Positions 38,888-55,129 of a DNA stretch of 64,000 nt are shown piece after piece. The notes below the pieces were generated by a model that saw nothing but the letters and a program-made list of their open reading frames with translations, ran no database searches and was not told where the DNA came from. This DNA comes from Minisyncoccota bacterium (lineage in GTDB: Bacteria > Patescibacteriota > Minisyncoccia > JAHIHE01 > JAGLIN01): positions 32,577 to 96,576 of the forward strand of contig JAGLIM010000006.1 of NCBI GenBank assembly GCA_023142995.1. Reading direction: 5' to 3'. Both the position numbers and the translations under genes were made by a program. Each line of letters starts with the position of its first letter. The first letter of the stretch is position 1.

Positions 38888-38972
38888 TAAAGTTAAAATA
38901 GATAAGGGTTGTAAACTTAGAATTTGAAATATAAAATAAATATTCTAAATTCTAAATTCTAAATTCTGTTGT

Positions 38973-40040
38973 ATGTTTTCATTTGAAAATCCATTATTAG
39001 TAATTGAAATAAGTAGAGTATTCGCAATTTTGGCGATATCATTTACTGTTGCAATGTTAGCAACTCCGCTACTTACTCATTTTTTGTATAAATATAAAAT
39101 TGGTAAACAAATCAGAGATGATGGTAGTTCACCTGTTTTTTCTGCACTTCACAAGAAGAAAGTTGGAACACCGACGATGGGGGGACTTTTGATTTGGATC
39201 ATCGTTCCGTCTCTAGCAATTTTGTTTTGGTTCTTTTCAACTATTACTGATAATTTTGTTATAAATAGCATGAACTTTCTTGATCGAGCTCATACTTATC
39301 TACCTTTAGGAATTCTTGTTTTAGCTGGGTTAGTTGGAGCTTTAGATGATATTATGGGTGTTTTTAAAATTGGTCCAAAAGGTGGAGGGCTTGGAATAAA
39401 GGAAAGAATTTTGTTATATACTTTTGTAGCGACGATCGGAGCCTTTTGGTTTTATTTTAAACTGAACTGGGATATGGTGCATATTCCTGCAGTTGGTGAT
39501 TTTTTTATTGGACTTTGGTATATCCCGCTTTTTATTTTTATAATTGTAGCAACTTCGTTTTCTTTGAACGAAACGGATGGTTTAGATGGATTGGCAGGCG
39601 GAGTTACTTTGCCAGCTTTTGGTGTTTTTGGAGCAATTGCTTTCGCGCAGGGGAATGTTGAGCTTGCGATGTTTTGCGCCGCGATAGTTGGAACACTACT
39701 TGCTTTTTTATGGTTCAATGTCTATCCAGCAAGATTCTATATGGGAGATACTGGTTCTATGGCGCTGGGTGTGACTTTAGGTGTGGTTGCGATGCTGACT
39801 AATTCGTTTTTGATATTGCCTTTTGTTTGTTTTATTTTAGTTATTGAATCTCTTTCGGTCATTATTCAGTTAACTTCAAAAAAATTCAGAGGTAAAAAAG
39901 TTTTTAAAAGTGCGCCGATTCATCATCATTTTGAAGCGATTGGTTGGCCAGAATGCAAAGTAACAATGAGATTTTGGATCATTGCTTGGGTGATGGCGGC
40001 AATTGGGTTGGTAATCGGACTGATTGGAATGGGGAAGTAA
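38973..40040 (+). CDS. mraY: Phospho-N-acetylmuramoyl-pentapeptide transferase MraY.
   Basis: GTPTMGGLLI, NETDGLDGLAGG, MGDTGSMALG and HHHFE. Confidence 0.9.
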   Translation: MFSFENPLLVIEISRVFAILAISFTVAMLATPLLTHFLYKYKIGKQIRDDGSSPVFSALHKKKVGTPTMGGLLIWIIVPSLAILFWFFSTITDNFVINSMNFLDRAHTYLPLGILVLAGLVGALDDIMGVFKIGPKGGGLGIKERILLYTFVATIGAFWFYFKLNWDMVHIPAVGDFFIGLWYIPLFIFIIVATSFSLNETDGLDGLAGGVTLPAFGVFGAIAFAQGNVELAMFCAAIVGTLLAFLWFNVYPARFYMGDTGSMALGVTLGVVAMLTNSFLILPFVCFILVIESLSVIIQLTSKKFRGKKVFKSAPIHHHFEAIGWPECKVTMRFWIIAWVMAAIGLVIGLIGMGK

Positions 40041-40079
40041 GTTGAAAGTTTAAAGGTAATAATTCTAAAAATAAAAACT

Positions 40080-40709
40080 ATGGAAAAAGAATCCTTATCA
40101 GCGTCAATGCTAAAACTAATTTTAGCGATTAGTCTAATTGTTGGAATTGGAGCGGTAATTGGTGTTTTGGGATATTTTTTGACAATGTCGAAAAGTGAGG
40201 TTGTGATTAATATCGATGTAGAAAAAAAGGTTATAAAAGATGAAGAAATGATTCAAGATGAAACTGTCGATTGGAAAATTTATAGGAATGAGGAGTATGG
40301 ATTTGAATTTGAATATCCAGAGAAATGGATTGCAAACAAACATGAGATTATTTCTAATAAAATATATTTAGCAAGTTCAGATATTGTTAATAAAGAATCA
40401 GGCGATACGCCGAATTCAATGGAGATTATGATATATAAAAATATAAACGAACTTGATTATAAAAATATTGGCTTAATTAATTTAAATGATTATTTGGACA
40501 AATATTCAAATATTTCCGATCCTCCGATAAGAAACGTAGAACCTTTTAGTGTCAAAAGCTTATCAGGGTATTATGCTGATGTTAGAGATTTTGGAGGTGG
40601 TAAAAATTATTATATTCAAACAAGTAATTATATTTATGTAATAAGATTTTCTATTAGTGAAAAAGTAATCAATCAAATTCTTTCCACTTTCAAGTTTATA
40701 GAAGAATAA
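40080..40709 (+). CDS. Membrane-anchored hypothetical protein.
   Basis: N-terminal TM helix. No recognisable motif. Confidence 0.4.
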   Translation: MEKESLSASMLKLILAISLIVGIGAVIGVLGYFLTMSKSEVVINIDVEKKVIKDEEMIQDETVDWKIYRNEEYGFEFEYPEKWIANKHEIISNKIYLASSDIVNKESGDTPNSMEIMIYKNINELDYKNIGLINLNDYLDKYSNISDPPIRNVEPFSVKSLSGYYADVRDFGGGKNYYIQTSNYIYVIRFSISEKVINQILSTFKFIEE

Positions 40710-40744
40710 AAAATGTAAAAATAAATATTCATAATTCAAAATTC

Positions 40745-42325
40745 ATGCTAGATATATTAATAAAAAATGGAACCGTAATTGATGGAACTGGTTCAAAAAG
40801 TTCTATTGTTGATGTTGGGATAGAGAAAGAAAAGATAACTATTTTTGAAAAAACAAAAGAAGTTGAAGCAGGTGAGATCATAGATGCTACTGGAAAGATC
40901 GTTTGTCCAGGATTTATTGATATCCTTGATCATTCAGATAATTTTTGGACTATTTTTACAATACCTAGATTAGATAGTAAAGTCACAGATGGTGTAACAA
41001 CAATAATTGGTGGTAATTGTGGAACATCACTTGCTCCAATATTAGGTGAAGGTTCTATTGAATCTATGAGAAAATGGGTAGATATAGGGAACATAAATAT
41101 AAATTGGGACAGAATGAGTAGCTTATTCTCTGAATTGCATAAAAAAGATATAGGTCTTAATTTTGGAACTTTAGTTGGACATGAGACATTAAGGCGAGGA
41201 TTAATGGGAGATCAAATAAGAAAAATTACTGGAGATGAGATCAAAATGATCATGAGAGTGCTTTTAGAAAGCTTAGAAGATGGAGCTTTCGGATTATCTA
41301 CTGGACTTGTTTTTTCACATGCTCGTATGGCGACTATTGAAGAAATAAGGAGTATTGTACGAATATTAAAAGCTAGTAATTCTTTTTATGCGAGTCATAT
41401 TAGAGGTGAATCAGAAGAATTGTTACCTAGTGTCAATGAAACAATTCAAATTGGAAGACGGACAGGAGTACCAATTCAAATATCGCACTTAAAGGCCGTT
41501 GGAGAAAAATATTGGTCTGATATGCAAAAAGCTATAAAAATGATAGATATAGCTAATGAAGAAGGAATTGATATTAACTTTGATGTGTATCCATATGACA
41601 CTACCGGATCAGTATTATATATTCTGCTTCCTGATTGGGTTTCTCAAGGAGGTAGAAAGAAAATGATGCAAAGATTAAAAAATATGGAATTAAGAAATAA
41701 GATTATAAAAGAGATGAGAGGAATGAACTATGATTATAAAAATATTATTGTTTCTATATGTCCAAGACTTAAAGAAGCCGTTGGTAGAAAAATCACTGAT
41801 CTTGCTGTAAGTCAAGAAATTAGTCCAGAAGAGGCTATAATTGAATTATTAATTAGCGCAAATGGTCATGTAGTTGTGTTTAATGGGGGAATATTAAGTG
41901 AAGATAATATTAAGTTATCTTTGCAAAGTCCATATTCAATCATATCATCGGCAGATGCTGCATATAATACTGAATATGCAAGAACAGGAGAGCTTGTTCA
42001 TCCAAGATGTTTCGGAACTTTTTCTAGGGTTTTAGGAAGATATGTAAGAGAACAGAAGGTTTTAAGTTTAGAAAGCGCTATTAAGAAGATGACCTCTGAT
42101 CCAGCTAAAAAAATTGGACTAAAAAATAGAGGTATCTTAAAAAAAGATTTTTATGCAGATGTTGTTGTATTTGATGAAAATAAGATTATAGACAAAGCTA
42201 ATTTTGAAAATCCTTATCAATATTCTCAAGGTATTGAACATGTAATTATTAATGGAAAGTTAGTTATAAATAAAGGTAAGCATACGGGTGAGTTGGCGGG
42301 GAAGGTTTTAAAAAAGACAGGTTAG
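40745..42325 (+). CDS. N-acyl-D-amino-acid deacylase (D-aminoacylase) family amidohydrolase.
   Basis: The N-terminus IKNGTVIDGTGS...DATGKIVCPGFIDILDHSD is typical of the D-aminoacylase family. Confidence 0.7.
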   Translation: MLDILIKNGTVIDGTGSKSSIVDVGIEKEKITIFEKTKEVEAGEIIDATGKIVCPGFIDILDHSDNFWTIFTIPRLDSKVTDGVTTIIGGNCGTSLAPILGEGSIESMRKWVDIGNININWDRMSSLFSELHKKDIGLNFGTLVGHETLRRGLMGDQIRKITGDEIKMIMRVLLESLEDGAFGLSTGLVFSHARMATIEEIRSIVRILKASNSFYASHIRGESEELLPSVNETIQIGRRTGVPIQISHLKAVGEKYWSDMQKAIKMIDIANEEGIDINFDVYPYDTTGSVLYILLPDWVSQGGRKKMMQRLKNMELRNKIIKEMRGMNYDYKNIIVSICPRLKEAVGRKITDLAVSQEISPEEAIIELLISANGHVVVFNGGILSEDNIKLSLQSPYSIISSADAAYNTEYARTGELVHPRCFGTFSRVLGRYVREQKVLSLESAIKKMTSDPAKKIGLKNRGILKKDFYADVVVFDENKIIDKANFENPYQYSQGIEHVIINGKLVINKGKHTGELAGKVLKKTG

Positions 42326-42364
42326 TTTTATTTTAATTTCTTCTTAATTTCTAAAATTAAAATT

Positions 42365-42685
42365 ATGCTTGAATCAATTTATTTATCAATTCTTCTCGCT
42401 GGTTTTGGAGGTGGAGCAGTCAGAGGTTTAGTTGGTTTTACTAAACATCAATTTTCTTATAAAAATGTTGGGTTTAATCTGCCTTATTTTGTTGCAATGA
42501 TGCTTATTTCTGGAGTTACTGGTCTTTTATCTGCTATTGTTGTTAGGGAGCTTGGTATAACTTTTTTAGAATTAGACTATACTCCAGCAGTAGCTTTTAT
42601 TGTTGGTTATGCTGGTGGTGATTTTCTGGAAAATCTCTATAAGATCATTATTAAAGAACCTTCGATTTACAAGATTAAAAAATAA
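42365..42685 (+). CDS. Small membrane protein, hypothetical.
   Basis: 106 aa with about 3 TM helices. Confidence 0.4.
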   Translation: MLESIYLSILLAGFGGGAVRGLVGFTKHQFSYKNVGFNLPYFVAMMLISGVTGLLSAIVVRELGITFLELDYTPAVAFIVGYAGGDFLENLYKIIIKEPSIYKIKK

Positions 42686-42777
42686 TAGTAATAATTTAAA
42701 GTATAACGAAGTTCAATTTACATCCTAATGTAGAGACGTAGCAGTGCTACGTCTATATAAGGTATAAAATTGTTTTT

Positions 42778-43791
42778 ATGGATGATAGTGATAAGATAAA
42801 TAATATTATAGAAAATTTAAGAGAACAAGATCAGCAAAATTATGGTGTTGCTGTTTTTGATATTGATTCAAAAATTGTAAAAAACAGTATTGTAGTTTTT
42901 GGAAAAGTTTTAACGTATAGTCAGAAAGATCAAGTCTCAGAATTGGCAAAAAAACAAAAAATAAAAATTACTTCCGACAGAATAAAAGTTTTAAGTGATT
43001 CTAGCAAAAGATATGAAATCAATTGGGCTGTTGTAAAAGACGCAGTGACAGATCTGAAATTGCGATTTGTTTCTAATAGAATAGTAAATGAAAAAATATT
43101 AAAAAGGATCAGATGTTCACAGGCGTTTAAGGGTGAGATCTTGAGAGTTTTATATAAAAATGAAGATCAACTATTAGTCCAGCAGAATGATCTGACATTA
43201 GGATGGGTGGACAGAAAAGATGTGATTTTAAAGAAAATTAGCTCTTCCCATGATAAAGCCTGCCCTGAGCGAGAGTCGAATGGGGGGAGGTTGGGAGGGG
43301 TTAGAAAACGCAGAAAATTAGGTTTATATAAAAAATGGAAGAGCGGCAATTTTGTGATTAAAGGTAAAGTGATAATTGCAAAAAAGTTCCACAGCCCTAG
43401 CGGGACTATGGAACTAACATCTAAAATCATCAGAGAAGCAGAAAAATATATAGGTACAAAATATCTTCTTGGCGGGAAAACTAAAAATGGAATTGATTGT
43501 TCTGGATTAGTTCAAGTCGTTTATAAGAATTCTTTAAATATAATTTTACCAAAACATTCGTGGGATCAAAAAGAGATTGGAGAAAAGTTGAAATTAGAGA
43601 ATATAAAGACTGGTGATCTAGTATTTTTGATAAAAAAAAGCAACAAGCATAAGCATGTTGGAATTGTGAAAAAAAATAAAGATATAAATTTAATTCATGC
43701 TTCATTTGATAAAAAGAAAGTTGTTGAGCAAAACTTAGATAAAGTTTTTGAAAAATACGATTTTGTAGAAGTGAGGAGGATAGTGAAATAG
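42778..43791 (+). CDS. NlpC/P60-family cell-wall peptidase.
   Basis: The catalytic Cys is in GIDCSGLV, His in HVGIV and His in IHAS, in the C-terminal domain. There is a G-rich internal segment ESNGGRLGGV. Confidence 0.8.
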   Translation: MDDSDKINNIIENLREQDQQNYGVAVFDIDSKIVKNSIVVFGKVLTYSQKDQVSELAKKQKIKITSDRIKVLSDSSKRYEINWAVVKDAVTDLKLRFVSNRIVNEKILKRIRCSQAFKGEILRVLYKNEDQLLVQQNDLTLGWVDRKDVILKKISSSHDKACPERESNGGRLGGVRKRRKLGLYKKWKSGNFVIKGKVIIAKKFHSPSGTMELTSKIIREAEKYIGTKYLLGGKTKNGIDCSGLVQVVYKNSLNIILPKHSWDQKEIGEKLKLENIKTGDLVFLIKKSNKHKHVGIVKKNKDINLIHASFDKKKVVEQNLDKVFEKYDFVEVRRIVK

Positions 43792-44228: not shown

Positions 44229-45764
44229 ATGTCAATATCAAATCAACTCAATCAATACAAGAATAAAAACATTCATATTGTCGGGATCGGTGGGGCGGAG
44301 GGAAGTGCAATCGCGGAGTTTTTAGTGTCTCAGGGAGTCTCTTCGGTCACTGGACATGATTTTTCTTCTAAAGCGGATTTCAAAAAAACTTTTTATAATA
44401 CTCATTTAAGTCTAAAACCAAAAGAAAGAGAAGGAGCATTAGATCATCTTTTGGATTTGCCTATTAGAATGAATTTTAAAGGTCATTATTTGGAAGGAAT
44501 TGACCAAGCGGATATGGTTTTTGTTTCGCAAGTTTGGTTTAAATACCCGCAAAATATGCCGATTTTAGAGAATTTGAAAGATAATGGAGTTCCATTCAAG
44601 ACTATTACTAATTTATATTTTGAACTAGCGCCATGTCCCATTATTTCTGTAACAGGAACAAACGGCAAGACAACGACAGCGAGATTAATCAATAGTATTT
44701 TTAATGCTTGGGGGGTTAAAGTCTTTTTCGCTGGGAACGATCGTCAAAATGTTCAGGTTCTAAATAGGCTTAATGAAATGAAAAAAGAAGATATTTTAAT
44801 TCTTGAAACAAGTAGTACTCAACTATTATTAAACTCTGAAATAAGTCCGTATATTGGAGTTATCACAAATATTACACCTAATCATATTGATGATCATGGC
44901 AGTTTTGAAAATTATATTGAAGCAAAAAAGAATTTGATTAGGTATCAAAAGAAAGGGGATTTTGCGGTTTTAAACGAAAAGTTGAAAGTTTATAAAGTAC
45001 ATAAAGCTATAAAGTCAAGGATATTTTGGTTTAGTGGAAAAAAAGAGTTGGAAGAAGGGTGTTTTGTAAAAAATGGGAAGATTATGATAAGAGAAAATGA
45101 TAAATGCAGGTTTGCAAAAAATCTCCACATCAACACACCCCTAGCCCCTCTCAAGAGGGGAATCGAGATAATGAAGCCAGCAATTGTTTGTAATATAGAT
45201 GATATAAAAATTCCAGGCAAGCATAATCTTGAAAATGTTTTATCGGCAGTTTCTGTTACTTATCTTTATGGTGTAGATTCGAAAATAATAAAAAAAGGCA
45301 TATCAGAATATACCGGTATAAAGCATAGATTAAAACTTCTTTACAATATAGATAGAATCAAATATTATGATGATACACAAGCTACCACTCCTGAGGCGAC
45401 AATTGCGGGTATTGGTTCTTTTGATGGTGATATAATATTGCTTGCAGGTGGAGATAATAAGGGAATGAATTATAAAGAATTGGCGGAGAAAATTAATGAT
45501 AAAGTGAAATTTCTGATGTTATTTTCTGGTAATGCTTCAGATGAAATTGAAGAGTTGATTGATAAAGATAAAGTAGATTTTATAAGAGTGAAAGATTTTG
45601 CTAATGCAATTGAAGAATTAAAAAAATATTATAAAAAAACTGATCCTATAAAAAACGGTACAGTCTTAATTTCTCCCGCGGCAGCTTATTTTTATTCAAA
45701 ATTTGTAGAAAATTCGGGAAAGAGTTTAAGAGAATGGATCAAATCAGTATCTAGTATCAAGTAG
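44229..45764 (+). CDS. murD: Mur ligase, probably MurD (UDP-MurNAc-L-Ala:D-Glu ligase). It contains an in-frame partial repeat element.
   Basis: ISVTGTNGKTTT P-loop, HNLENVLSAV and GGDNKGMNY. It sits after mraY. The segment NLHINTPLAPLKRGIEIM is encoded by a repeat-element fragment at about 45106-45175. Confidence 0.7.
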   Translation: MSISNQLNQYKNKNIHIVGIGGAEGSAIAEFLVSQGVSSVTGHDFSSKADFKKTFYNTHLSLKPKEREGALDHLLDLPIRMNFKGHYLEGIDQADMVFVSQVWFKYPQNMPILENLKDNGVPFKTITNLYFELAPCPIISVTGTNGKTTTARLINSIFNAWGVKVFFAGNDRQNVQVLNRLNEMKKEDILILETSSTQLLLNSEISPYIGVITNITPNHIDDHGSFENYIEAKKNLIRYQKKGDFAVLNEKLKVYKVHKAIKSRIFWFSGKKELEEGCFVKNGKIMIRENDKCRFAKNLHINTPLAPLKRGIEIMKPAIVCNIDDIKIPGKHNLENVLSAVSVTYLYGVDSKIIKKGISEYTGIKHRLKLLYNIDRIKYYDDTQATTPEATIAGIGSFDGDIILLAGGDNKGMNYKELAEKINDKVKFLMLFSGNASDEIEELIDKDKVDFIRVKDFANAIEELKKYYKKTDPIKNGTVLISPAAAYFYSKFVENSGKSLREWIKSVSSIK

Positions 45765-45831
45765 TAAGTATTAAGCAAAATTAGTATTAAATATCAGGCT
45801 TGATACTTAATACTAGCTACTTAATACTAAT

Positions 45832-46066: not shown

Positions 46067-47113
46067 ATGTCAAACTTTCAAAATAAAATCAATAAAAATA
46101 AAAAAGGCATCTGGCGATATGCTGATTTTTATGATGAGTTTGTAAAACAGGAGAATAGATTAAGTTTAGACAGCAATGAAAGCAGAGATTCTGTAGGTGC
46201 TAAGCACCTACAGAATATGAAGAATTTATATTTTAAGCGAGAAGATGAGAATAAGTGTGGGTCGTTGAAAGAGAGAAGTCTTGCTTATCAAGTTTCACTT
46301 GCCAAGCAAAGCAAAAAGAAAGAATTAGTGATTTCAACTTCTGGTAATGCAGGGATCGCAGCAGCAGCATATTGCCAGAAAACTGGAATAAAATTATATA
46401 TTTTTGTATCTCCTGAAACTGAAAAAGCAAAAATTGTGGAGATGCAAAAATATAATCCAATAATAATAAAATCGTTTCGAGCAATGCGATTGGCAAACTA
46501 CTTAGCGGCAAAGTATAAAATAGAAAATCTAAGACCATCTCTTAATAATTCATCAATAGAAGGATTTAAGTCAATCGCATTTGAAATATTTGAAGATTTA
46601 GGCGAGGTGGACGCGGTTTTTACATATGTTACAAGTGGAAGTTCGTTTATTGGAATTGGTAGGGCATATAAATATCTTTTAGAAAGTAGTGAAATTAAAA
46701 AATTGCCAAAACTATTTACTGTTCAGAGCGGAGAGATATTTTCTATTGCATCTGAATTTGAAGAAATTCAAAAACAAAGATCAATAGCTGGTAGGTTAGG
46801 AGTAAAAAATACTAGACGGAAAAAAGAAATTTTAGAATTAATAAAACTAAGTGGTGGAAGTGGGATATATGTGAGTGACGAAGAAATTGATAAAGCTAAA
46901 AACATTTTAGAAAATAATAATATTTATACCTCTTTTGAAGGTTGCGCGAGTTTTGCGGGAATAAAAACTGTGACTGAAAAAAATAAATTTAATAAAGTTG
47001 TTTGTATTCTTTCGGGGAAGCTTAGAGAAAAAACTGATAAAATTGATGAAAGTAGGATCTATAAAGCAGAGAATTTTGAAGAAGTGGATGAAATAGTTGA
47101 GTTAAAAAAATAA
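46067..47113 (+). CDS. PLP-dependent fold-type II enzyme (threonine synthase / serine racemase / dehydratase superfamily).
   Basis: FKREDENKCGSLKERS, which is the (F/L)KxEdxNptGSFKdR PLP-lysine motif. Also a glycine-rich SGNAGIAAAAY. Confidence 0.7.
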   Translation: MSNFQNKINKNKKGIWRYADFYDEFVKQENRLSLDSNESRDSVGAKHLQNMKNLYFKREDENKCGSLKERSLAYQVSLAKQSKKKELVISTSGNAGIAAAAYCQKTGIKLYIFVSPETEKAKIVEMQKYNPIIIKSFRAMRLANYLAAKYKIENLRPSLNNSSIEGFKSIAFEIFEDLGEVDAVFTYVTSGSSFIGIGRAYKYLLESSEIKKLPKLFTVQSGEIFSIASEFEEIQKQRSIAGRLGVKNTRRKKEILELIKLSGGSGIYVSDEEIDKAKNILENNNIYTSFEGCASFAGIKTVTEKNKFNKVVCILSGKLREKTDKIDESRIYKAENFEEVDEIVELKK

Positions 47114-47273
47114 AATAGAAAATAATAGATTAGAATATTAAATCATAAATCCAAAATTATAAATTCCAAATAAATCCAAAATTCAAATGTTCAAAATTTT
47201 AAACTGTTTTTGATTTTGGTTATTGTAATTTATTTGTTATTTGATATTTTGAATTTGTAATTTAATTAATAAG

Positions 47274-48653
47274 ATGACCAGTAATTATAAAAAAAATAAA
47301 AAATTACTAAATGCCAAACAGGTTGGTTCTATATTTTTTGTTACTCCAAATCCGAATCGTGGTATTGGACTTGAAGAAGAAATAAAAGACTACCATATAA
47401 TATGTTCACAGAAGACTGATCTGGTTGATTGTTTAAAAAATGAAAAAATATCTATTTTATGTCTTGACGATGATAATATAAAAAGTTCAGGAAAATTGTT
47501 AGAGAGTAAAAAAGTTCTAGATTATATAAAAAAGCAGTCAAAACAAAAAACAGCAAATATAATTACTTTTAAACCAAGTCCAAAAATTCATAAAATTTGT
47601 AAAGATAATGGTTTTAGGTATTTAGGAAATGATTGGAGATTAAACAGAAAACTTGAAGATAAAGTTGAGTTTGTAGATATAACCAATAGATTAAAGATCC
47701 CAAATGCAAAAAGCAGGATAATCAAAATAGAGGATCAGGAAAGATTTAAGGATAAATTCAATTTTAAGAATAAAAATAAGTATGTTATCCAACTTCCAAG
47801 AGGATATTCAGGGAATTCTACTTTTTTAATTGAGAATAAAAATGATCTAGAAAAGATAGTTGAAAAATATGAAAATAGGATTGTTAAATTTTCAAAGTAC
47901 ATAGAAGGTGATGCTTATACTCTTAATGTTTGTGTTGGAAACTTTGGCATAGTTGTAAGCCAACTAATCTATCAGATCACAGGTTTGACTTTATTCAATA
48001 AGAATCAACTTGGAACTTCTGGGAATGATTACGTATATAGCGAAAGATTAAGTAGTATCGAAAAGAAAAGGATATTTAATTACACAAAAAAAATAGGTAA
48101 ATATATGGCGCAGTTAGGATATCAAGGAATTTTTGGTCTTGATCTTATAATTGATAAAAATGATGTTAATCTAATAGAGATTAATCCAAGATTTGTTGGT
48201 TCAATTCCAGCGTTTACAAAGCTTCAACTTCAAAATCAAGAAGTATCTTTTTTATTCTTACATCTATCTGAGTTTTTGGGTCTCAATGTCGATTCAGAAC
48301 TATTACTAGAAGATCTTTCTTATGAGAAATGGAACAAACAGAATATTTTTAGTTTTTCTCAATTAGTTTTAAGAAATACTAAAGATGTTCCAATAAAAAT
48401 CGTAGAACCAATGGTATCTGGTGTTTATAAATTCGATCAGGATAAGTTGATTTTGAAAAACAAAACTTATAATTTTAAGAATTTGAATGATAAAGAAGTT
48501 CTAGTTCAATGTTTAAAGAAAAATAGTATTGTAAGTCCTGATACAGAATATGCTAATATTCAATTTGGATATGGTATAATAGAACATAATCATATTAAAA
48601 AAGAATATAAAAAAATAGTTGAAACGATATTAAATAATATACAGTTAAAATAA
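47274..48653 (+). CDS. ATP-grasp carboxylate-amine ligase-like protein.
   Basis: ATP-grasp core LIEINPRFVGS plus upstream YVIQLPRGYSGNSTFLI. There is an N-terminal extension of about 150 aa. Confidence 0.65.
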   Translation: MTSNYKKNKKLLNAKQVGSIFFVTPNPNRGIGLEEEIKDYHIICSQKTDLVDCLKNEKISILCLDDDNIKSSGKLLESKKVLDYIKKQSKQKTANIITFKPSPKIHKICKDNGFRYLGNDWRLNRKLEDKVEFVDITNRLKIPNAKSRIIKIEDQERFKDKFNFKNKNKYVIQLPRGYSGNSTFLIENKNDLEKIVEKYENRIVKFSKYIEGDAYTLNVCVGNFGIVVSQLIYQITGLTLFNKNQLGTSGNDYVYSERLSSIEKKRIFNYTKKIGKYMAQLGYQGIFGLDLIIDKNDVNLIEINPRFVGSIPAFTKLQLQNQEVSFLFLHLSEFLGLNVDSELLLEDLSYEKWNKQNIFSFSQLVLRNTKDVPIKIVEPMVSGVYKFDQDKLILKNKTYNFKNLNDKEVLVQCLKKNSIVSPDTEYANIQFGYGIIEHNHIKKEYKKIVETILNNIQLK

Positions 48654-48664
48654 TCATATTTTCT

Positions 48665-49762
48665 ATGAGATTAAAAGGTGTAGATAAAACTCTTCTGATC
48701 ACAGTCATTGCTTTGTCTGTTTTTGGTTTAATAGTAATATCAAGCGCTAGTGTTGTTATGAGTTATAATAATTTTGGTTATAACCACTATTATTTATCTC
48801 ATCAATTCTTGTATGGTTTTTTGCCAGGTATTTTATTATTATTTCTTGTTCAAAAAATTGATTACAGAATATTAAAGAAATATGCTTTTTTATTTTTAAT
48901 AATAACTCTATTATTATTGGTAATAGTTTTTATTCCAGGACTTGGTTATGGTCTAAAAGGTGCAGACAGGTGGATAGTTATTGCTGGAATAAGTATTCAG
49001 CCATCAGAGTTTATAAAATTGATTTTTATATTATATCTTGCGGCATGGCTTGAAAAAAGGAAAAAAGATAAACAAAACTTTTCAAAATCGTTGATTCCTT
49101 TTGTTGTTATAATCTTAGTTATATCATTTCCTTTAATAATGCAGCCAGACATAGGAACATTAAGTATTATCATACTTACTGCTGTGATAATGTATTTTAT
49201 GTCTGGAATGAAAATTAGTCATATTTTTATTCTTGCTAGTGGCGGAATTATGGGATTATTATTGTTGATTAAAATTGCGCCATATAGAATGAATAGATTT
49301 ATGGTATTTTTACATCCAGAATTAGATCCTCAGGGAATTGGATATCAAATCAATCAAGCATTACTAGCCATTGGTTCTGGCGGGTTCTTTGGACTTGGCT
49401 TTGGCAGAAGTAGGCAAAAGTTCAATTATCTTCCAGAATCTATTGGTGATTCAATTTTTGCAATAACTGGAGAAGAGTTGGGTTTTATCGGATTATTCGT
49501 TCTTTTGACATTGTTTTTGATATTTGCTTTGAGAGGGTATAAAATAGCGAGTAAAGCGCCAGATGATTTTGGAAAATTAGTTGCAGTGGGAATTACCTCA
49601 TGGATTATTTTTCAGGCATTTATGAATATAGCTGCTATTACCTCATTGATTCCTCTGACTGGTATTCCTTTGCCTTTTATCAGCTATGGTGGATCAGCTT
49701 TGATCACATCTTTGATTGGGTGTGGAATTTTACTTAGTATCTCAAAATATAGTAGAAATTAG
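48665..49762 (+). CDS. ftsW: FtsW/RodA (SEDS) family protein.
   Basis: RWIVIAGISIQPSEFIKLIFI and 9-10 TM helices. Confidence 0.85.
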   Translation: MRLKGVDKTLLITVIALSVFGLIVISSASVVMSYNNFGYNHYYLSHQFLYGFLPGILLLFLVQKIDYRILKKYAFLFLIITLLLLVIVFIPGLGYGLKGADRWIVIAGISIQPSEFIKLIFILYLAAWLEKRKKDKQNFSKSLIPFVVIILVISFPLIMQPDIGTLSIIILTAVIMYFMSGMKISHIFILASGGIMGLLLLIKIAPYRMNRFMVFLHPELDPQGIGYQINQALLAIGSGGFFGLGFGRSRQKFNYLPESIGDSIFAITGEELGFIGLFVLLTLFLIFALRGYKIASKAPDDFGKLVAVGITSWIIFQAFMNIAAITSLIPLTGIPLPFISYGGSALITSLIGCGILLSISKYSRN

Positions 49763-49901
49763 ATATTTGGATATTAAAGTAATGATTTATTGTCCTCTTC
49801 TTTTTTCATCTTAAAAATGGTAAAATTACATTGTTATATTGCTGTATTATTTGTAGTATAGTTAACAATTTAACAATTTAACAATTTAACAATATAATTA
49901 T

Positions 49902-51014
49902 ATGAGAATATTATTCGTAGGTAGGCCTTTAAAGGGGCATTTATATCCAATAATTGCGATATATGAGGAATTTAAAAAGACAATGGATTTCTCAGATTTT
50001 GAGTCTTCTGAATTTAAATTAATAACTGCAAAAAATGATTTTGTAAAAGATGTTTTGGAGGGAATCAATATCTCGTGTAGTTTTATATTTTCTGCAAAAG
50101 AAAGAGATTCGTTTTCTCCATTAATCATATTGGATATTTTAAAATCTATCATTGGGTTTATACAGTCTATATTTCTTGTTTTCAATTATATGCCAGATGT
50201 AATATTTTCGAAAGGTAGTGTTGTATCATTGCCAGTTGTGTTAGTTAGTTGGATATTTAGAATTCCAATTGTTATTCATGAATCAGATGCTATTGCTAGT
50301 CCAATTGATAAGTTTATGTTTAGGTTTGCAAAGAAGGTAGCTGTATCATTTCCAAATAATAAAGATATTTATGTATCTAAAAAAGTGTTCTTTTCTGGGA
50401 ATCCAGTTAGAAATTTTATTATTCAAGCAGATAAAGAAAAAGCAAAACAAAGTTTTGTATTACATAATGAAAAACCAGTATTATTTATTATGGCTGGTAC
50501 TGCAGGAGCAGAAGTTATAAATAAGTTATTAATTGAGATACTTCCTGATCTGTTAAAAGATTATCAAATAATTCATCAATGTGGAATGGTAAATTATAAT
50601 TATGTAAGAGGGATTGTCCAGAAGATGAATGTACCAGAATTAAATGACTATCATTTATTTCCATATTTCAGAGAAAGAGCTGCTGATGCGTATAATGCCT
50701 GTGATCTAGTAATCAGTAGAGCTGGAGCAAACACAGTTTCTGAGATTATGACAATGGGTAAGGCTAGTGTTCTAATACCTCTTTCTATGGGAAGCAGTGA
50801 TAAACAACGAAAAAATGCTTATCACTATTCTCAATCTGGAGCAGCAATTTTAGTTAGTGAAAAGAATTTGAAACCGCATTTGTTATTAAATGTAATTAAT
50901 GATCTATTTAAGAATCATTTAAAAATTATTGAAATGGAGCGAGCTTCAAGGAAATTGTCGTATAATGATGCAGGAAAAATAATTACAGAAGCAATTAAAA
51001 AAATAGTAGATTAA
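49902..51014 (+). CDS. murG: MurG (undecaprenyl-PP-MurNAc-pentapeptide-UDPGlcNAc GlcNAc transferase).
   Basis: C-terminal ACDLVISRAGANTVSEIMTMGKASVLIPL and the N-terminal Gly-rich MRILFVGRPLKGHLYP. Confidence 0.8.
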   Translation: MRILFVGRPLKGHLYPIIAIYEEFKKTMDFSDFESSEFKLITAKNDFVKDVLEGINISCSFIFSAKERDSFSPLIILDILKSIIGFIQSIFLVFNYMPDVIFSKGSVVSLPVVLVSWIFRIPIVIHESDAIASPIDKFMFRFAKKVAVSFPNNKDIYVSKKVFFSGNPVRNFIIQADKEKAKQSFVLHNEKPVLFIMAGTAGAEVINKLLIEILPDLLKDYQIIHQCGMVNYNYVRGIVQKMNVPELNDYHLFPYFRERAADAYNACDLVISRAGANTVSEIMTMGKASVLIPLSMGSSDKQRKNAYHYSQSGAAILVSEKNLKPHLLLNVINDLFKNHLKIIEMERASRKLSYNDAGKIITEAIKKIVD

Positions 51015-51017: not shown

Positions 51018-52457
51018 TTGTTGATTTTTATGAAAATTGATTTTAAAAAAATAAATAAAATATATTTTATAGGAATTGGTGGTATCGGACTTAGCGCTAT
51101 CGCCAAATTTATGAAATTAGATCAAAAGCAAGTTAGTGGTTCAGATTTGAATCATTCTTTAATCATTGATAATTTGAAAAAAGATAAAATAAAAGTTTAT
51201 ATCGGACATTCGAAAGATAACATAACTAATGATATTGAACTGGTTATTCACACAACAGCAATCTCAAAAGATAATCCAGAATTAAAAAGGGCAAAAGAGC
51301 TAAATATAAAAACTATTACATACCCAGAGTCTTTAGGGCTCATTTTTAATAATAAGTTTGGTATAGCTGTGTGTGGTACACATGGTAAGTCTTCAACATC
51401 AGCATTGGCTGGCTTTTTGTTAGACGATGCAAAATTTGATCCTTCTATTGTTGTGGGAAGTATCTTGCCGAGATATAAAAGCAATTTGCGTATTGGCAAG
51501 AGCAAATATTTTGTTGTTGAAGCGTGCGAGTATGAAAGGTCATTTCTAAATTTATATCCCAAAATCATTATTTTAAATAATATTGAACTTGATCACACAG
51601 ATTATTATAAAGACATAGAGGATATGAGAAGCGCGTTTGAGGAATTTGTGGGGCATTTGCCCAAGGACGGGATTTTGATTTGTAATGGAGATGATGAAGA
51701 AATTATAAATCTAAAATTACAAATTCTAAATAAATTCAAAATTCAAAATTCAAAATTCAAAATTCTATCCTTTGGCTTAGATAAGAATAATGACGTGCGA
51801 GGTTGTGATGTTAGATTTGAAAGTGGAATGGCTAAATTTAAGGTACTTTATAATGAGAAAGATTTGGGGGAGTTTGTTTTGAAGGTGCCTGGTCTTTTTA
51901 ATATTTATAATGCTTTAGGCGTGATTACTTTAGGACTGATATTGGAAATTCCGATTGAAACAATAAAAAAATCCTTAATGAATTATTCGGGGATTTGGCG
52001 GAGGTTTGAAATAAAAGGGAAATATAAAAATGCTTTAGTTATTTCTGATTATGCGCATCATCCAACTGCAGTAAAAGCAACAATAGAAGCGACAAGGAAG
52101 TTTTATCCAAATAAAAGGATACTTGCTGTTTTTCAGCCACATCAGCACAATCGAACGAAAAAGTTATATAAAGATTTTTTAAACAGTTTTAACGATGCGG
52201 ATATTGTGATTTTGTCTGAAATATTTGACGTGAAAGGGAGGGAAGAAAGCGATGACCAAAATGTTAGTTCATTAAATCTAGTGGACGATATAAGAAAAAA
52301 TTGGGAAATTGAGAAATTAGATATTAATTCTATTTTTTATTCTAGGAATTTAGAAGAAACGAGAAAGATGATTGATAAGTATATTGAACCTAATGATATT
52401 CTATTGATCATGGGGGCGGGGGATATTTATAAAGTAGCAGATGACTTGATTAAATAA
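51018..52457 (+). CDS. murC: MurC (UDP-MurNAc:L-Ala ligase).
   Basis: IYFIGIGGIGLSAIAKF...VSGSD and IAVCGTHGKSST. It contains an in-frame AAAATTC x4 heptamer array (KIQNSKFKI) at about 51712-51767. Confidence 0.9.
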   Translation: MLIFMKIDFKKINKIYFIGIGGIGLSAIAKFMKLDQKQVSGSDLNHSLIIDNLKKDKIKVYIGHSKDNITNDIELVIHTTAISKDNPELKRAKELNIKTITYPESLGLIFNNKFGIAVCGTHGKSSTSALAGFLLDDAKFDPSIVVGSILPRYKSNLRIGKSKYFVVEACEYERSFLNLYPKIIILNNIELDHTDYYKDIEDMRSAFEEFVGHLPKDGILICNGDDEEIINLKLQILNKFKIQNSKFKILSFGLDKNNDVRGCDVRFESGMAKFKVLYNEKDLGEFVLKVPGLFNIYNALGVITLGLILEIPIETIKKSLMNYSGIWRRFEIKGKYKNALVISDYAHHPTAVKATIEATRKFYPNKRILAVFQPHQHNRTKKLYKDFLNSFNDADIVILSEIFDVKGREESDDQNVSSLNLVDDIRKNWEIEKLDINSIFYSRNLEETRKMIDKYIEPNDILLIMGAGDIYKVADDLIK

Positions 52458-52520
52458 GAGGTTATTGATTTGTCATTATGATTTAAAATTGTTAAGTATG
52501 GTTTTGTAATGACTAAAAAA

Positions 52521-52558
52521 TTTATCAAAAAAAGTGTGGTCGATTTGATAAATTTTTT
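52521..52558 (+). terminator. Rho-independent terminator.
   Basis: TTTATCAAA-aaaagtgtggtcga-TTTGATAAA followed by TTTTTT. Confidence 0.55.
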
Positions 52559-52609
52559 AGGTTTTTAATATTTTTATTTAATTTTTAAATTATTTTTGCG
52601 TATATTTTT

Positions 52610-53806
52610 TTGATGTTAAAATCAAAATTATTTAAAAGCGTAAAAATTAAAAAGGAGGACAAGATGCATAAACAACAAATCAAAAAAATTGCGGGATTAT
52701 TTTCAATAATTTTTGCATGTTCGGTGTTTAGTTTTAGTGTTACTCAAATAGTTAGCGCTTCCGAACAGATAGAGAAAATTAATGTTTCTTATGATAATGA
52801 GTTAAATTCTAGAACCCCAGATATAGTAAAAGACGCTTCTGTGTATATTAGCATTGGCAGAAGAATAACTTATGGAGATGAGTCAATGCGCTATATCGGA
52901 AAACTTGATGTTTCGTCATTAAACAGTACGGAAATGGAGACAGCTGTTTTGACTATGGACAGAGTAAGCACAAGTTGGGACGGCAACGGAGATTATTCAC
53001 TTTATAAAGTTAATGAAAGTTGGGATTCATCAACCGTTACTTGGAATAATCAACCAGCAATAAATATAGTTGAAATTACTAGGGGAGTAGTCGGTAGTTA
53101 TGGAATTATGGAATTTAATATTTCTAATTTAGCGAAAGAATGGGCTAATGACCCAGAATCTAACAATGGTTTTTTAATAATGAAAAGCGAGGAGTCAAGT
53201 ATTCCTAGTAATGAATATGGGTTATTTGCTTCTTCTAATTATCCTGAAGCAGGATGTGAAACAATACCATATTTATCAATTACTTATATAAATGAAGATC
53301 CAGCTATTGCTATAATCTCTCCAAATGGTGGAGAAGTATGGGAAAACGGAAAAACTTATACGATAACGTGGGAGCAAGAAAATGTTGATAAGCTCACGAT
53401 TTTTTTACAGCGTGGTTCTACTGGTTATCCTGTGGTGTATAATCATCTTGTTGATATTAACGCTGAATTTGGAAGTTATGATTATACTGTTCCTGAGAAT
53501 GTTCCCGAAGCTGAAAATTACAAAATTTGGATAATTGCCTATAAGACAGGATTCGGACAAGCGCAAGATTACAGTGATAATTATTTTAACATTAGAGAAG
53601 AAACTCTTTTTCCCGAAATTAATGGAGATTTAGATCATGACGGTGATGTTGATTATGACGATTTTATGGTTTTTTATGGCGCGTGGGGTTCGTGTGAAGG
53701 GGATCCAAGATTTAATCCAGAAGCTGATTTTTATCAAGACGGATATATAAATTTTATTGATTATCAGTATTTTATTGTTTATTATAGAGAATTCAATGGA
53801 CTCTAA
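52610..53806 (+). CDS. Secreted protein with a DNRLRE-like domain and a C-terminal dockerin-like Ca-binding repeat.
   Basis: Signal peptide or TM. TSWDGNGDYSLYKVNESWDSSTVTWNNQP. DLDHDGDVDYDDFMVFYGAWG. Confidence 0.55.
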   Translation: MMLKSKLFKSVKIKKEDKMHKQQIKKIAGLFSIIFACSVFSFSVTQIVSASEQIEKINVSYDNELNSRTPDIVKDASVYISIGRRITYGDESMRYIGKLDVSSLNSTEMETAVLTMDRVSTSWDGNGDYSLYKVNESWDSSTVTWNNQPAINIVEITRGVVGSYGIMEFNISNLAKEWANDPESNNGFLIMKSEESSIPSNEYGLFASSNYPEAGCETIPYLSITYINEDPAIAIISPNGGEVWENGKTYTITWEQENVDKLTIFLQRGSTGYPVVYNHLVDINAEFGSYDYTVPENVPEAENYKIWIIAYKTGFGQAQDYSDNYFNIREETLFPEINGDLDHDGDVDYDDFMVFYGAWGSCEGDPRFNPEADFYQDGYINFIDYQYFIVYYREFNGL

Positions 53807-54073
53807 AACACTAACAACGATTATTCAATAAAAGCGGTGGAATAAAAAAAGATGATGTATGAAGATCATACATCGTTTGTTGGTTAACTTATTTTTCTAT
53901 GTTAAAGCTTTTTTTAATCATTTCCTGATAAATATATATCAAGGGCTGATAAATTCTTCTCGTCTCCTCTATATTCATCTAAAAGCTTTTGGATTATATC
54001 TGGTTTTTCGGTTTCGTCCATCTTGTTTATCTCCTAATTTTAGAATACTATGTTTATAATATAAGTCAATAAT

Positions 54074-55129
54074 ATGCCAATCAAAATTCAGGAAAATATT
54101 TCACTTTCAAAATACACTTCATTTAAGATCGGTGGTCCAGCGAGGTATTTTTGTGTGGTAAAAGATATTGATGAAATAAAAGAAGCATTAGAATTTACGG
54201 GGAAGAAAAAATTGAAAGTTTTTGTTTTAGGAGGCGGTAGTAATTTATTAATAGCAGATAAAGGGTTCGATGGACTAGTGATACGAATTCAAAATTCAAA
54301 ATTCAAAATTCAAAATTCTAATATTATTTGCGGAAGTGGACTATCTTTAGCTAAATTAGTATTTGAATTAGCAGAAGCTGACCTAACGGATATTGAATGG
54401 GCAGCGGGTATTCCAGGAACTGTTGGTGGGGCGATTGCGAATAATGCGGGGGCTTTTGGAAAATGTATGGAGGATGTTGTAAAAGAAGTTGAAGTTTTAG
54501 AGATTAATCGCTGGCTCCATAGTCCCGATAGGGCTGTGGAGCCTATTGCACAAAAAGGTTCCACATCAACACATCTCTTACCCTCTTCCTCCCAAGGCGG
54601 ACAAGCAAGAGGGGAATTATCACAATGGAACCAGCGTATGTTTACTAACAAACAATGCCAATTTTCTTATCGCAATAGCATTTTCAAAAAAGAAAAAAAG
54701 TATATTATCTTGGACGCTGTTTTGAAATTAGAAAAAGGGGATCAAGAAAAAAACAAAAAAACAATTGCAGAAATTCTAGAATCAAGAAGAGAAAAACAGC
54801 CGTTAGAGCATCCCAGTGCGGGGAGCGTGTTTAAAAATCCAGTTGTTGATGGTGCTCATTTAGAAAAATTAAAAAAAGAATTTCCAGAGTTAAATGAAAT
54901 CGTTAAAAATAATACTATTTCTGCTGGTTGGATGATCGAACAAATTGAAGGATTAAAGGGGAAAAAGATCGGTGGCGCAATGGTTTCAGAAAAGCATTGT
55001 AATTTTATTGTTAATGTAGAAAATGCTAAAGCAGAAGATGTGATCATACTTATCAGTCTGATCAAACAAAAAATCAGAAGCCATTTCGGGATTCAATTAA
55101 AAGAAGAAATTGAATATATTGGATTTTAG
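54074..55129 (+). CDS. murB: MurB (UDP-N-acetylenolpyruvoylglucosamine reductase). It carries two in-frame repeat insertions.
   Basis: KYTSFKIGGPARYF, VLGGGSNLL, GIPGTVGGAIANNAG and SAGSVFKNP. There is a heptamer array at 54285-54318 and a palindromic element at 54511-54634. Confidence 0.85.
   Translation: MPIKIQENISLSKYTSFKIGGPARYFCVVKDIDEIKEALEFTGKKKLKVFVLGGGSNLLIADKGFDGLVIRIQNSKFKIQNSNIICGSGLSLAKLVFELAEADLTDIEWAAGIPGTVGGAIANNAGAFGKCMEDVVKEVEVLEINRWLHSPDRAVEPIAQKGSTSTHLLPSSSQGGQARGELSQWNQRMFTNKQCQFSYRNSIFKKEKKYIILDAVLKLEKGDQEKNKKTIAEILESRREKQPLEHPSAGSVFKNPVVDGAHLEKLKKEFPELNEIVKNNTISAGWMIEQIEGLKGKKIGGAMVSEKHCNFIVNVENAKAEDVIILISLIKQKIRSHFGIQLKEEIEYIGF
54511..54634 (+). repeat. Palindromic repeat element inserted in-frame in murB, with terminal inverted repeats CTGGCTCCAT / ATGGAACCAG.
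   Basis: It encodes WLHSPDRAVEPIAQKGSTSTHLLPSSSQGGQARGELSQWNQR. It contains the GCTCCATAGTCCCGATAGGGCTGTGGAGC hairpin and a reversed GTCCGCCTTGGGAG core. Confidence 0.65.

Follow-up and report, generated by a model that had tools for sequence, protein, structure and literature searches.

Repeat arrays around the mur genes

The stretch of Minisyncoccota DNA analysed here (64,000 nucleotides, hereafter the window) has a GC content of about 30% and carries short tandem arrays both inside genes and in the spacers between them. Tandem Repeats Finder and direct reading showed that the arrays at murB, murC, mraY, murG, secA and other sites are present as a preliminary description had listed them, and a reading-frame check bore out that those in murB and murC are in frame. 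The identities of the surrounding genes were upheld by Pfam. The arrays and the two genes that contain them are listed here.

34518-34540, + strand: AATACTA heptamer array, 3.3 copies, intergenic
38379-38441, + strand: degenerate array of AATTTTC/CAATTTT units, 6.6 copies at 76% match, permease-VanZ spacer
38942-38967, + strand: TAAATTC array upstream of mraY, 3.7 copies, 100% match, intergenic
40724-40744, + strand: ATTCATA/ATTCAAA array upstream of the amidohydrolase gene, about 3 copies, abutting the ATG at 40745
45746-45775, + strand: imperfect AGTATCA array, 4.3 copies, over the Mur-ligase stop codon
45799-45828, + strand: imperfect TRATACT array, the complement of AGTATCA, forming with it an inverted pair (45746-45828)
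47139-47263, + strand: weak, degenerate arrays upstream of the ATP-grasp gene (scores 31-48; ATG at 47274)
47139-47182, + strand: A-rich TAAATCA/AAATCCAAAATT degenerate array within this region
47232-47263, + strand: T-rich ATTTGTA array within this region, 4.6 copies
49862-49897, + strand: octamer array TTAACAAT upstream of murG, 4.5 copies, 96% match, ending 4 nt before the ATG at 49902
51030-52457, + strand: murC gene, containing the AAATTCA array
51700-51767, + strand: whole degenerate period-7 tract of murC, AAATTMY units followed by the perfect run
51732-51765, + strand: perfect run of murC, AAATTCA, 4.9 copies, in frame
54074-55129, + strand: murB gene, containing the AAAATTC array
54286-54318, + strand: murB array, AATTCAA (equivalent to AAAATTC), 4.7 copies, period 7, 100% match, in frame
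62268-62310, + strand: octamer array ACATTTTA (TTAACATT), 5.4 copies, 85% match, overlapping the secA stop codon

The arrays at murG and secA, described earlier as heptamers, both consist of octamers, and those reported upstream of the ATP-grasp gene are present but only as weak, degenerate repeats. The array before the amidohydrolase gene (40727-40746 according to Tandem Repeats Finder) was absent from the earlier list and is a fourth AAATTC-type site; all four are found on the + strand, in a stretch of 15.4 kb. Allowing up to 3 mismatches, (AAAATTC)3 occurs at 4 loci in the window, against 0.24 expected from shuffles. The TAATACT unit of the array at 34518-34540 matches the array at 45799-45828, and the A-rich and T-rich arrays before the ATP-grasp gene are roughly inverted relative to each other. 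A GC-rich hairpin (62318-62345) lies downstream of the secA octamers. As a separate observation, murB and an MFS gene of the window each contain a MITE-like (miniature inverted-repeat element) insert.

The murB and murC arrays encode parts of the proteins

The murB array encodes residues I72 to N81 within RIQNSKFKIQNSN, whereas murC, whose array encodes ...LKLQILNKFKIQNSKFKIL, reads KFKIQNSKFKI. The peptide common to both is therefore IQNSKFKI, shorter at its start than the KIQNSKFKI given before. In the AlphaFold2 model of MurB, the array segment spans three β-strands (65-72, 77-80 and 83-87) with pLDDT values of at least 90, and alignment to PDB entry 4pyt matched it to the native segment with no insert. 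The array thus encodes a native β-meander that is predicted with confidence. The idea of coding inserts does not hold for murB, where the array takes the place of a strand-turn-strand segment of normal length. Expansion was seen for murC alone, whose segment is about 9 residues longer than in solved MurC structures.

MurB orthologues of 45-77% identity also carried near-perfect heptamer arrays at the equivalent site, built from other units (AAAATAC, AAGATAC, CGAATTA, AAATTTC, AAATGTC and GATACGC). Across all of these variants the segment kept the pattern [KR]-[IV]-x-[ND]-x-x-[FLY]. On the MurB tree, branches with different units were intermingled, and arrays were absent from outgroup clades. 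MurC orthologues likewise had other heptamer units at the matching site, so that the combination of one site with different units was seen in murB DNA and in the peptides of both proteins; MurG, TrmD and SecA resembled MurB in this respect. Judged from sequence, heptamer repeats with differing units are thus held at one gene site across many Patescibacteria, and the window is one example. The preliminary description had assigned the arrays to one family in one cell-wall operon, but heptamer arrays occur clade-wide, at murB, murC, murG, TrmD, SecA, an ATP-grasp gene and intergenic sites.

Two comparisons point to maintenance at the level of the DNA. The 33-nt murB array was identical in the window and in locus L082, with flanks only about 80% identical, and codon identity at identical residues reached 85-92% within the array versus 37-71% elsewhere. 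A check had been proposed on whether relatives lack the segment; KIQNSKFKIQNS was present in orthologues at about 50% identity, which indicates that the array is old and has been kept pure at the DNA level. Its presence in distant orthologues, which the preliminary description would have counted against its own reading, does not make the feature ordinary.

Every MurB and MurC orthologue examined was in frame. The length variants, P0028, and P0034 and P0046 relative to P0041, differed by +7 residues. The proposed frame constraint on the coding arrays was supported, with length changes among orthologues that include steps of 21 nt (three units, 7 residues). Comparison of unit counts between relatives had been proposed as a way to look for length heterogeneity. 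Three near-identical assemblies gave no copy-number change: there was no gap over murB at 98.4% identity, and there were 0 gaps across 15.7-19.6 kb at 99.95-99.98% identity.

Period 7 is in large excess

We counted perfect arrays of at least 3 copies in 1.14 Mb of DNA around murB from 80 species. Period 7 gave 56 arrays, while periods 5, 6, 8 and 9 gave 6, 2, 4 and 1; a second-order Markov model expects 0 for any period of at least 6. Most perfect arrays (46 of 59) lay within long open reading frames on the sense strand. Array density was 0.35 per kb in murB (about 9-fold) and 0.14 per kb in murC (3.5-fold), compared with 0.04 per kb in other DNA, and the most frequent array size in unrelated genes was 4.1-5.0 copies. 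In the encoded peptides, 103 of 240 MurB/MurC orthologues contained heptamer-periodic 7-mers, 453 in all where 0.85 were expected; the corresponding search for period 8 gave 18 matches, and period 5 was at chance level.

AAAATTC was the commonest unit overall (10 of 106). Composition and stop-freeness rank it only 20th of 1608 possible units, so its share needs shared ancestry or a further bias. Sharing of units within genomes was not significant, either for identical units (p=0.13) or for units within one mismatch (p=0.08).

Spacer arrays lie close to start codons

Five nucleotides separate the mraY array from its ATG (38973), and there is no Shine-Dalgarno (SD) motif; only about 9 of 50 genes had an SD-like motif. 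Spacer arrays ended 1-10 nt before SD-less starts at mraY, the amidohydrolase gene and murG, and at loci L001, L027, L034 and L064. In the murG octamers the -35-like hexamer TTAACA recurs in tandem, and TATAAT lies 17 nt past the second unit, which makes this array a candidate promoter. It was conserved before murG in L082 and L005, and ATACTCA arrays stood at the equivalent place upstream of the ATP-grasp gene in the close relatives L001 and L005. Arrays upstream of murG occurred at only 2 of 38 loci, which implies that spacer arrays are short-lived in evolution.

As RNA the arrays were unstructured, folding no better than shuffles (z +0.6 to +1.6), and the fold of the region upstream of the ATP-grasp gene was not significant (-20.1 kcal/mol, z -1.17). 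Rfam covariance models applied to positions 36000-64000 gave no match on any heptamer array. A sub-threshold FtrB match at 62286-62366 (31.9 bits, E 0.13; the gathering score is 66) touches the secA octamers.

Iterons are repeats of about 17-22 bp beside a rep or dnaA gene, with an AT-rich unwinding element. The earlier proposal of iteron-like sites was not supported, since the units measure 7-8 nt and the arrays lie inside genes or abut start codons; a replication gene was not found in the 36-64 kb part of the window.

Discussion

We lean, with modest confidence, to the explanation that the arrays are heptanucleotide long simple-sequence repeats (LSSRs), generated by slippage or conversion and then filtered by selection; the slippage-type origin proposed in the preliminary description stands on this point. 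A DNA-level process favouring 7-nt registers would create tandem heptamers and recopy one unit over its neighbours, through replication slippage or through out-of-register template switching with return to register. Selection for frame, stop-free units and fold then filters the arrays that survive. A coding array of at least 3 units is read in all three phases, so only units that are stop-free in every phase can exist, and in DNA of 70% A+T this favours shapes with an A-run, a T-run and a C, such as AAAATTC. Net length is free to change only by three units (21 nt, 7 residues), and the resulting 7-residue periodic peptide has to suit the fold, as the β-meander pattern of MurB illustrates. Since a slip of one unit is lethal in an essential gene and is purged, coding arrays are locked in length, and the site therefore persists across a large clade while its unit drifts and is re-homogenised. 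Spacer arrays would be free to vary and short-lived, and those abutting start codons may supply unstructured A/U-rich leaders in an SD-poor genome. In our view the arrays are for the most part by-products of mutation that the cell tolerates, rather than a regulatory device, and they are probably neither regulatory nor phase-variable. The units differ between loci and their sharing within genomes is not significant, so no sequence-specific reader is implied.

Some observations stand against this explanation. No slippage event and no array indel was seen among assemblies at 98.4-99.98% identity, and homogenisation by single units in a frame-locked array would need a length-neutral conversion step. 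Array density is raised in murB and murC, and the retention of one site among orthologues of 45-77% identity might also reflect selection acting on the array as such. A simple birth-and-decay model does not predict the preferred copy number across unrelated genes, and for the choice of 7 nt in particular we draw on a hypothesis from the literature.

Heptanucleotides are described as the most abundant class of 5-11-nt LSSRs in many bacteria, and polymerase slippage has been proposed for them (Mrazek, Guo and Shah 2007, summarised in PMC4679880 and PMC4692102). The arrays share with LSSRs perfect 7-nt repetition far above chance (3.7-4.9 copies in the window), the dominance of period 7 among periods of 5-11 nt, locus-specific units and the proposed slippage origin. 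Known LSSRs are described as mainly intergenic, with in-gene units favouring multiples of three, whereas the present arrays are for the most part read in frame within conserved enzymes that are essential; they occupy orthologous positions in a large clade, and their units turn over. Cyanobacterial STRR and the GGGAATC and GGGGA(T/C)T repeats of Xanthomonas and Nostoc are likewise heptamers, with about 4 units preferred, inverted pairs and positions near the ends of open reading frames (PMC4692102); the present arrays differ in being AT-rich, incapable of forming G-quadruplexes and mostly coding.

An unlikely alternative is that the arrays are functional cis-elements, periodic DNA or mRNA binding sites for a regulator that coordinates expression of the cell-wall cluster. 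The regulator could be a translation-initiation or post-transcriptional factor, as has been proposed for the TAACTGA repeats of Beggiatoaceae (PMC4679880). TAACTGA direct repeats of Beggiatoaceae, cyanobacteria and Bacteroidetes occur as 2-6 copies a few nt before SD-less starts in SD-poor genomes (PMC4679880). The mraY and amidohydrolase arrays resemble these repeats in position, and the unstructured RNA, the co-orientation of the four AAATTC-type sites and the enrichment in murB and murC would also fit. TAACTGA, however, is one fixed genome-wide unit with stop codons in all frames (PMC4679880), while the present units vary among orthologues and, within a genome, from locus to locus, and no unit is significantly tied to its genome. 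The upstream arrays are not conserved clade-wide, coding arrays occur in TrmD and SecA too, and neither an Rfam match (36000-64000) nor a candidate factor was found.

It is very doubtful that the arrays are tied to a small mobile GC-rich palindrome, CCTGCCTACCGGYAGGCAGG, as its preferred target or as a by-product of its insertion and excision. A scan placed the hairpin within heptamer arrays at L023, L038 and L069 (3 of 13 pattern matches, against a background of 1.3%), reading of the flanks added L029 and L055, and the MurC and TrmD arrays hold peptide traces of hairpin inserts. The majority of arrays have no hairpin, however, including all those of the window, and the insert at L023 measures exactly 21 nt and lacks a target duplication, which fits targeting of existing arrays and not their generation. 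Rickettsia palindromic elements are selfish DNA in frame within protein genes. They offer a parallel for DNA that is not protein-driven yet tolerated in frame in housekeeping proteins, and an analogue of the MITE-like insert in murB and the MFS gene and of the 20-nt hairpins inside arrays; the present arrays differ as local tandem repeats, each with its own unit, and not dispersed copies.

That the arrays are contingency loci, in which one-unit slippage would toggle murB and murC or tune promoters, is highly improbable. Because 7 is not divisible by three, gain or loss of one unit shifts the frame, and in principle promoter spacing could change as well; 7-bp promoter repeats phase-vary the hmw1A and hmw2A genes of Haemophilus influenzae (PMC8262952). 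Such loci lie in dispensable genes, usually ones for the cell surface or host interaction, or in their promoters, and they differ from strain to strain. The murB and murC genes are essential single-copy housekeeping genes (Pfam), the arrays of related loci fall in murG, secA, trmD and further housekeeping genes, the coding arrays occupy structured segments in the middle of the protein, all orthologues are in frame, and copy number was invariant in the near-identical assemblies.

Selection at the protein level alone for a 7-residue repeat, with the DNA periodicity incidental, is strongly disfavoured. The constant MurB pattern and its place in a folded β-meander agree with it, but such a repeat predicts a period of 21 nt and not 7, heptamer-consistent peptides are about 500 times commoner than chance, codon choice is fixed inside the arrays, and the same arrays occur in non-coding DNA. 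Chance or assembly artefact, to which only the low GC content lends anything, was rejected, as both shuffles and the Markov model put the expected number of arrays near 0 and independent NCBI, ENA and JGI assemblies agree on them.

Beyond the LSSR explanation, it is conceivable, though quite improbable, that the arrays are actively written or read, by a heptamer-specific enzymatic process or by a factor that recognises the 7-nt periodicity and not the sequence. The writing could be done, for example, by a polymerase or primase activity that switches templates, or by whatever machinery mobilises the GC-rich hairpin seen within some arrays. Relative to known LSSRs as they are described, what is new is that coding regions hold the majority of these arrays although the unit length is not divisible by three. 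If the arrays are written or read, such an activity would maintain pure heptamer repeats in set places within essential genes throughout Patescibacteria, and coding DNA would then carry a functional layer common to the clade instead of the debris of mutation.

The cell-wall gene cluster and its arrays

The window has a GC content of about 30%, and Pfam matches revealed a co-oriented cell-wall cluster of the dcw type on its plus strand. The top protein matches were Patescibacteria (Parcubacteria/Paceibacteria) MAGs, and a MurC identical to that of the window was found on NCBI assembly GCA_030632705.1.

Genes (Pfam) and principal tandem arrays of the window
38504-38887, +, VanZ-like gene
38973-40040, +, mraY
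44229-45764, +, Mur ligase
46067-47113, +, PLP-dependent enzyme
47274-48653, +, ATP-grasp gene
48665-49762, +, ftsW
49862-49901 (region), murG-upstream array, octamer TTAACAAT x4.5
49902-51014, +, murG
51030-52457, +, murC
51732-51765, +, murC array, 4.9 copies, perfect, encoding KFKIQNSKFKI, within a degenerate tract at 51700-51767
52610-53806, +, CBM96/Kre9 protein
54074-55129, +, murB
54286-54318, +, murB array, AAAATTC x4.7, perfect, encoding RIQNSKFKIQNSN
55333-56634, +, MFS transporter
59622-62276, +, secA

Repeat detection and direct reading confirmed the existence of every array in the preliminary description, and the murB and murC arrays lay in frame as it had claimed. The murB, murC and mraY arrays are heptamers, the last being TAAATTC x3.7 and stopping 5 nt short of the mraY ATG. 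The murG array and the secA array (ACATTTTA x5.4, spanning the secA stop codon) are octamers. One further array, the fourth of the AAATTC type, directly adjoins the ATG at 40745. With up to three mismatches, (AAAATTC)3 matched four loci in the window, on the plus strand only, against 0.24 expected.

Two independent assemblies aligned to the window with 99.95% identity across 19.6 kb and 99.98% identity across 15.7 kb, and a third with 98.4% identity across murB. The copy-number differences between strains that the preliminary description had envisaged did not appear among these three near-identical assemblies (98.4-99.98%), which contained no gap within any array. The copy numbers of spacer arrays diverged only at about 80% identity.

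Orthologous sites with changing units

MurB orthologues with 45-77% identity carried 7-residue-periodic peptides at the alignment position matching the window's array (site 1, encoding I72-N81), and the heptanucleotide inferred by back-translation differed among them.

Peptides at MurB site 1 and their back-translated units
RIQNSKFKIQNSN, AAAATTC
RITNYELRITN, CGAATTA
RIANCELRIAN, CGAATTG
KIQDTRYKIQDT, AAGATAC
KVKSQKSKVKS, AAAGTCA

A comparison of DNA from 80 species-level genomes confirmed near-perfect arrays at site 1. Among their units were AAAATAC x4 (loci L002 and L051), AAAATTC x5 (L004), CAATTCA x4 (L006), CGAATTA (L007 and L008), AAATTTC (L015), GATACGC (L026), AAGATAC (L041) and AAATGTC (L050). 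Remoter MurB orthologues had ordinary sequence of equal length there. MurC behaved likewise at its own site, with VSSIKYQVSS (GTATCAA), ISNIKYQISN (ATATCAA) and ISNFQFPISN (ATTTCCA).

Exact 7-residue windows encodable by a pure heptamer were present in 63 of 120 MurB and 40 of 120 MurC orthologues. A peptide-window scan of the 240 orthologues gave 453 matches against 0.85 expected; period 8 gave 18, and period 5 remained at the chance level. Array positions were kept in at least 103 of the 240, the DNA staying pure and the unit changing, and the hot spots were MurB residues 70-88 and 140-190 and MurC residues 223-245 and 414-451. At the second hot spots (MurB about 140-190, MurC about 414-451; e.g. 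orthologues P0010-P0014, P0047, P0131-P0140 and P0168) the units often contained TTGG, as in ILDIGYWIL (ATATTGG) and KLEIGNWKLEI (AAATTGG), and this peptide motif was shared between MurB and MurC of different genomes.

On a MurB tree from which the array columns were left out, the units were interleaved, AAAATTC occurred in many clades, and the outgroup clades had no arrays. This pattern suggests that units were replaced repeatedly or arose convergently.

Structural context and frame constraint

The coding arrays had been regarded as inserts. In an alignment with solved MurB (PDB 4pyt), the MurB array instead occupies the place of a native segment, with 2 residues fewer. In the AlphaFold model of MurB (pLDDT 83.8), residues 71-83 run from the last part of strand 65-72 through strand 77-80 into strand 83-87, with a turn on either side of the middle strand, and pLDDT there is at least 90. 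Every MurB unit variant retained [KR]-[IV]-x-[ND]-x-x-[FLY]. The MurC segment of the window exceeds its counterpart in solved MurC by about 9 residues; the most frequent form among MurC orthologues (15 aa) has the standard length.

Length variants differed in 7-aa (21-nt) steps, with RIMNNEL x3 in P0028 and the presence or absence of one RIANCEL between P0034/P0046 and P0041. The 33-nt murB array was the same in the window and its close relative L082, with diverged flanks (murB about 80% nucleotide identity). At residues shared by orthologues, codon identity was 85-92% in array positions vs 37-71% elsewhere.

Translation passes through an array of at least three units in each of the three phases, and a unit inside a gene must therefore lack stop codons in all of them. 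Stop-freeness at 70% A+T favours unit shapes composed of an A-run, a T-run and C; the spacer units TAAATTC, TTAACAAT and ACATTTTA each contain TAA. Composition and stop-freeness explained the shape of AAAATTC, yet ranked it only 20th of 1608 units, and are thus a partial cause. AAAATTC was the commonest unit (10 of 106 arrays), and this together with the stop-free constraint accounts for its sharing by murB and murC. A genome-specific unit, which would imply a trans-acting factor, was unsupported by permutation of the 106 arrays (p=0.13 for identical units, 0.08 within one mismatch).

Period and distribution of the arrays

Perfect arrays of at least three copies showed a marked excess at period 7. 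The 1.14 Mb of related loci held 56 of them, against 6, 2, 4 and 1 at periods 5, 6, 8 and 9; the Markov-model expectation for periods of at least 6 was 0. Long ORFs contained 46 of 59 arrays (the window's included) on the sense strand, and by homology these ORFs were murB, murC, murG, the ATP-grasp gene, Mur ligase, secA and trmD. Array density per kb was 0.35 in murB, 0.14 in murC, 0.09 in murG, 0.03 in secA, 0 in ftsW and 0.04 elsewhere. The preliminary description had seen one repeat family of one cell-wall operon, but the arrays occur clade-wide, including in trmD and secA. Their spread across many genes and these densities make them a clade-wide habit with lasting hot spots, not a property of the window's operon.

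Orthologues of TrmD, the tRNA m1G37 methyltransferase, have a conserved in-frame array site of their own (IKFQISNFKFQ / IISNFQFPISN; L015 2693-2723, L022 311-341, L043 2506-2536, L032 3127-3147), so the phenomenon reaches beyond cell-wall genes. Furthermore, L105 (3731-3773), a distant metagenome contig (44% GC, not Patescibacteria-like) that was retrieved with the AAAATTC peptide pattern, bears TGACTAA x6 and an AATTCAA x5 array; AAAATTC-type heptamer arrays thus also occur outside the clade. Among the matches listed, a metagenome scan for strain variants gave only distant MurB (27-33% identity), which is biased as a control set because two loci were chosen through the array pattern itself. 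We suspect that the array-derived pattern QNSKFKIQ swamped this peptide scan.

Spacer arrays and gene starts

Several arrays stop 1-10 nt before start codons, in the window and in other loci. Conserved upstream regulatory arrays were not found, a period-7 array lying upstream of murG in 2 of 38 loci and of murC and murB in none; spacer arrays are not deeply conserved. Folded as RNA, the arrays were unstructured, and they had no Rfam match. By count the octamer TTAACAAT was not special (27 matches vs up to 59 for composition-matched controls); it was conserved only in position upstream of murG, and only in close relatives. There it reads as tandem TTAACA (-35-like) followed by TATAAT, an arrangement kept in two close relatives.

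Tandem TTAACAAT followed by a TATAAT-like box 3-8 nt before the murG ATG
Window, 49862-49901
L082, 45-75
L005, 5187-5230

This order of motifs suggests a putative promoter and a leaderless or near-leaderless murG mRNA. Start codons of the window are mostly preceded by A/T-rich tracts and the genome is SD-poor: of 50 crude gene calls, no more than about 9 have an SD-like motif in the 20 nt before the start. In Beggiatoaceae (PMC4679880), TAACTGA repeats similarly lie next to start codons in an SD-poor setting, but the window's clade has no single unit.

Inverted pairs, in which an A-rich array is succeeded by its complement, occur at 45746-45828 and 47139-47263 and could form long imperfect hairpins between genes; the GGGAATC repeats of Xanthomonas (PMC4692102) are reported to be arranged in the same way. 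GC-rich hairpins in AT-rich spacers, ATTCCTGCGGAGGCAGGAAT at 62318-62345 after the secA octamer array and CCCCTCTCAAGAGGGG at 55295-55320 shortly before the start of the MFS gene, may be terminators or kin of the palindromic elements described below. A near-perfect hairpin of about 100 nt (58980-59085), in the spacer that precedes the ORF at 59171, was picked up solely by sub-threshold miRNA-precursor-like Rfam matches on both strands.

GC-rich elements in genes and arrays

Inserted in frame in murB, at 54508-54640, is an element of about 125 nt that is richer in GC and carries terminal inverted repeats (GCTGGCTCCAT...ATGGAACCAGC); the residues encoded there (about 146-188) had AF2 pLDDT below 50. 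The MFS gene holds another in-frame copy (55931-56040), with 92% identity across 76 nt. The element resembles MITE-like selfish DNA whose presence inside proteins is tolerated, in analogy to the Rickettsia palindromic elements, which are likewise selfish DNA inserted within protein genes. A separate GC-rich piece in an NlpC/P60 gene (43242-43302) matched L082 at 93%.

The heptamer arrays also contain a 20-nt GC-rich palindrome, CCTGCCTACCGGYAGGCAGG, three times in murB site 1, in frame (in arrays: L023 3407-3475, L038 10211-10279, L055 about 4293, L029 3823-3839, L069 2110-2133). The L023 insert is exactly 21 nt, between two AAGATAC units, without target duplication. Arrays were enriched for the palindrome (3 of 13 pattern matches vs 1.3% background), and the odd MurC/TrmD array peptides PKAGPPWAEK and RLPKPGTGGQA are probably inserts of it.

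Origin and significance of the arrays

The best-supported reading is that the arrays are heptanucleotide long simple-sequence repeats (LSSRs). Slippage or template switch biased to 7 nt would create and re-homogenise them, and frame, stop-freeness and fold would then filter them; the coding arrays would be locked in length and for that reason long-lived. The data demonstrate the period-7 excess, the placement in coding DNA, the endurance of orthologous sites through changes of unit, the purity of the DNA, the 21-nt steps and the native structural setting; from these we infer both the slippage or conversion mechanism and an absence of function. Three points weigh against the slippage account: no slippage event was seen, murB and murC are strongly enriched, and it does not explain why array size peaks at about 4.4-4.7 copies.

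According to PMC4679880 and PMC4692102, heptamer LSSRs are already known and predominate among 5-11-nt repeats. Lin and Kussell (PMC3315296) reported that non-triplet repeats are generally suppressed mid-protein and normally purged from the interior of essential genes. In-frame heptamer arrays shared by orthologues of essential genes at one site were not described in the literature searched, and neither were simple-sequence repeats in the Candidate Phyla Radiation (CPR) or Patescibacteria.

The arrays are ready-made strain-typing markers, and through convergent peptides such as KIQNSKFKIQNS they can lead homology searches and Patescibacteria phylogenies astray. They also allow a test of why bacteria favour repeats of 7 nt. 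Despite the usual purging of non-triplet repeats from mid-gene positions, such repeats are common in the essential genes of these Patescibacteria, which offer a natural system for the concerted evolution of microsatellites under absolute frame constraint.
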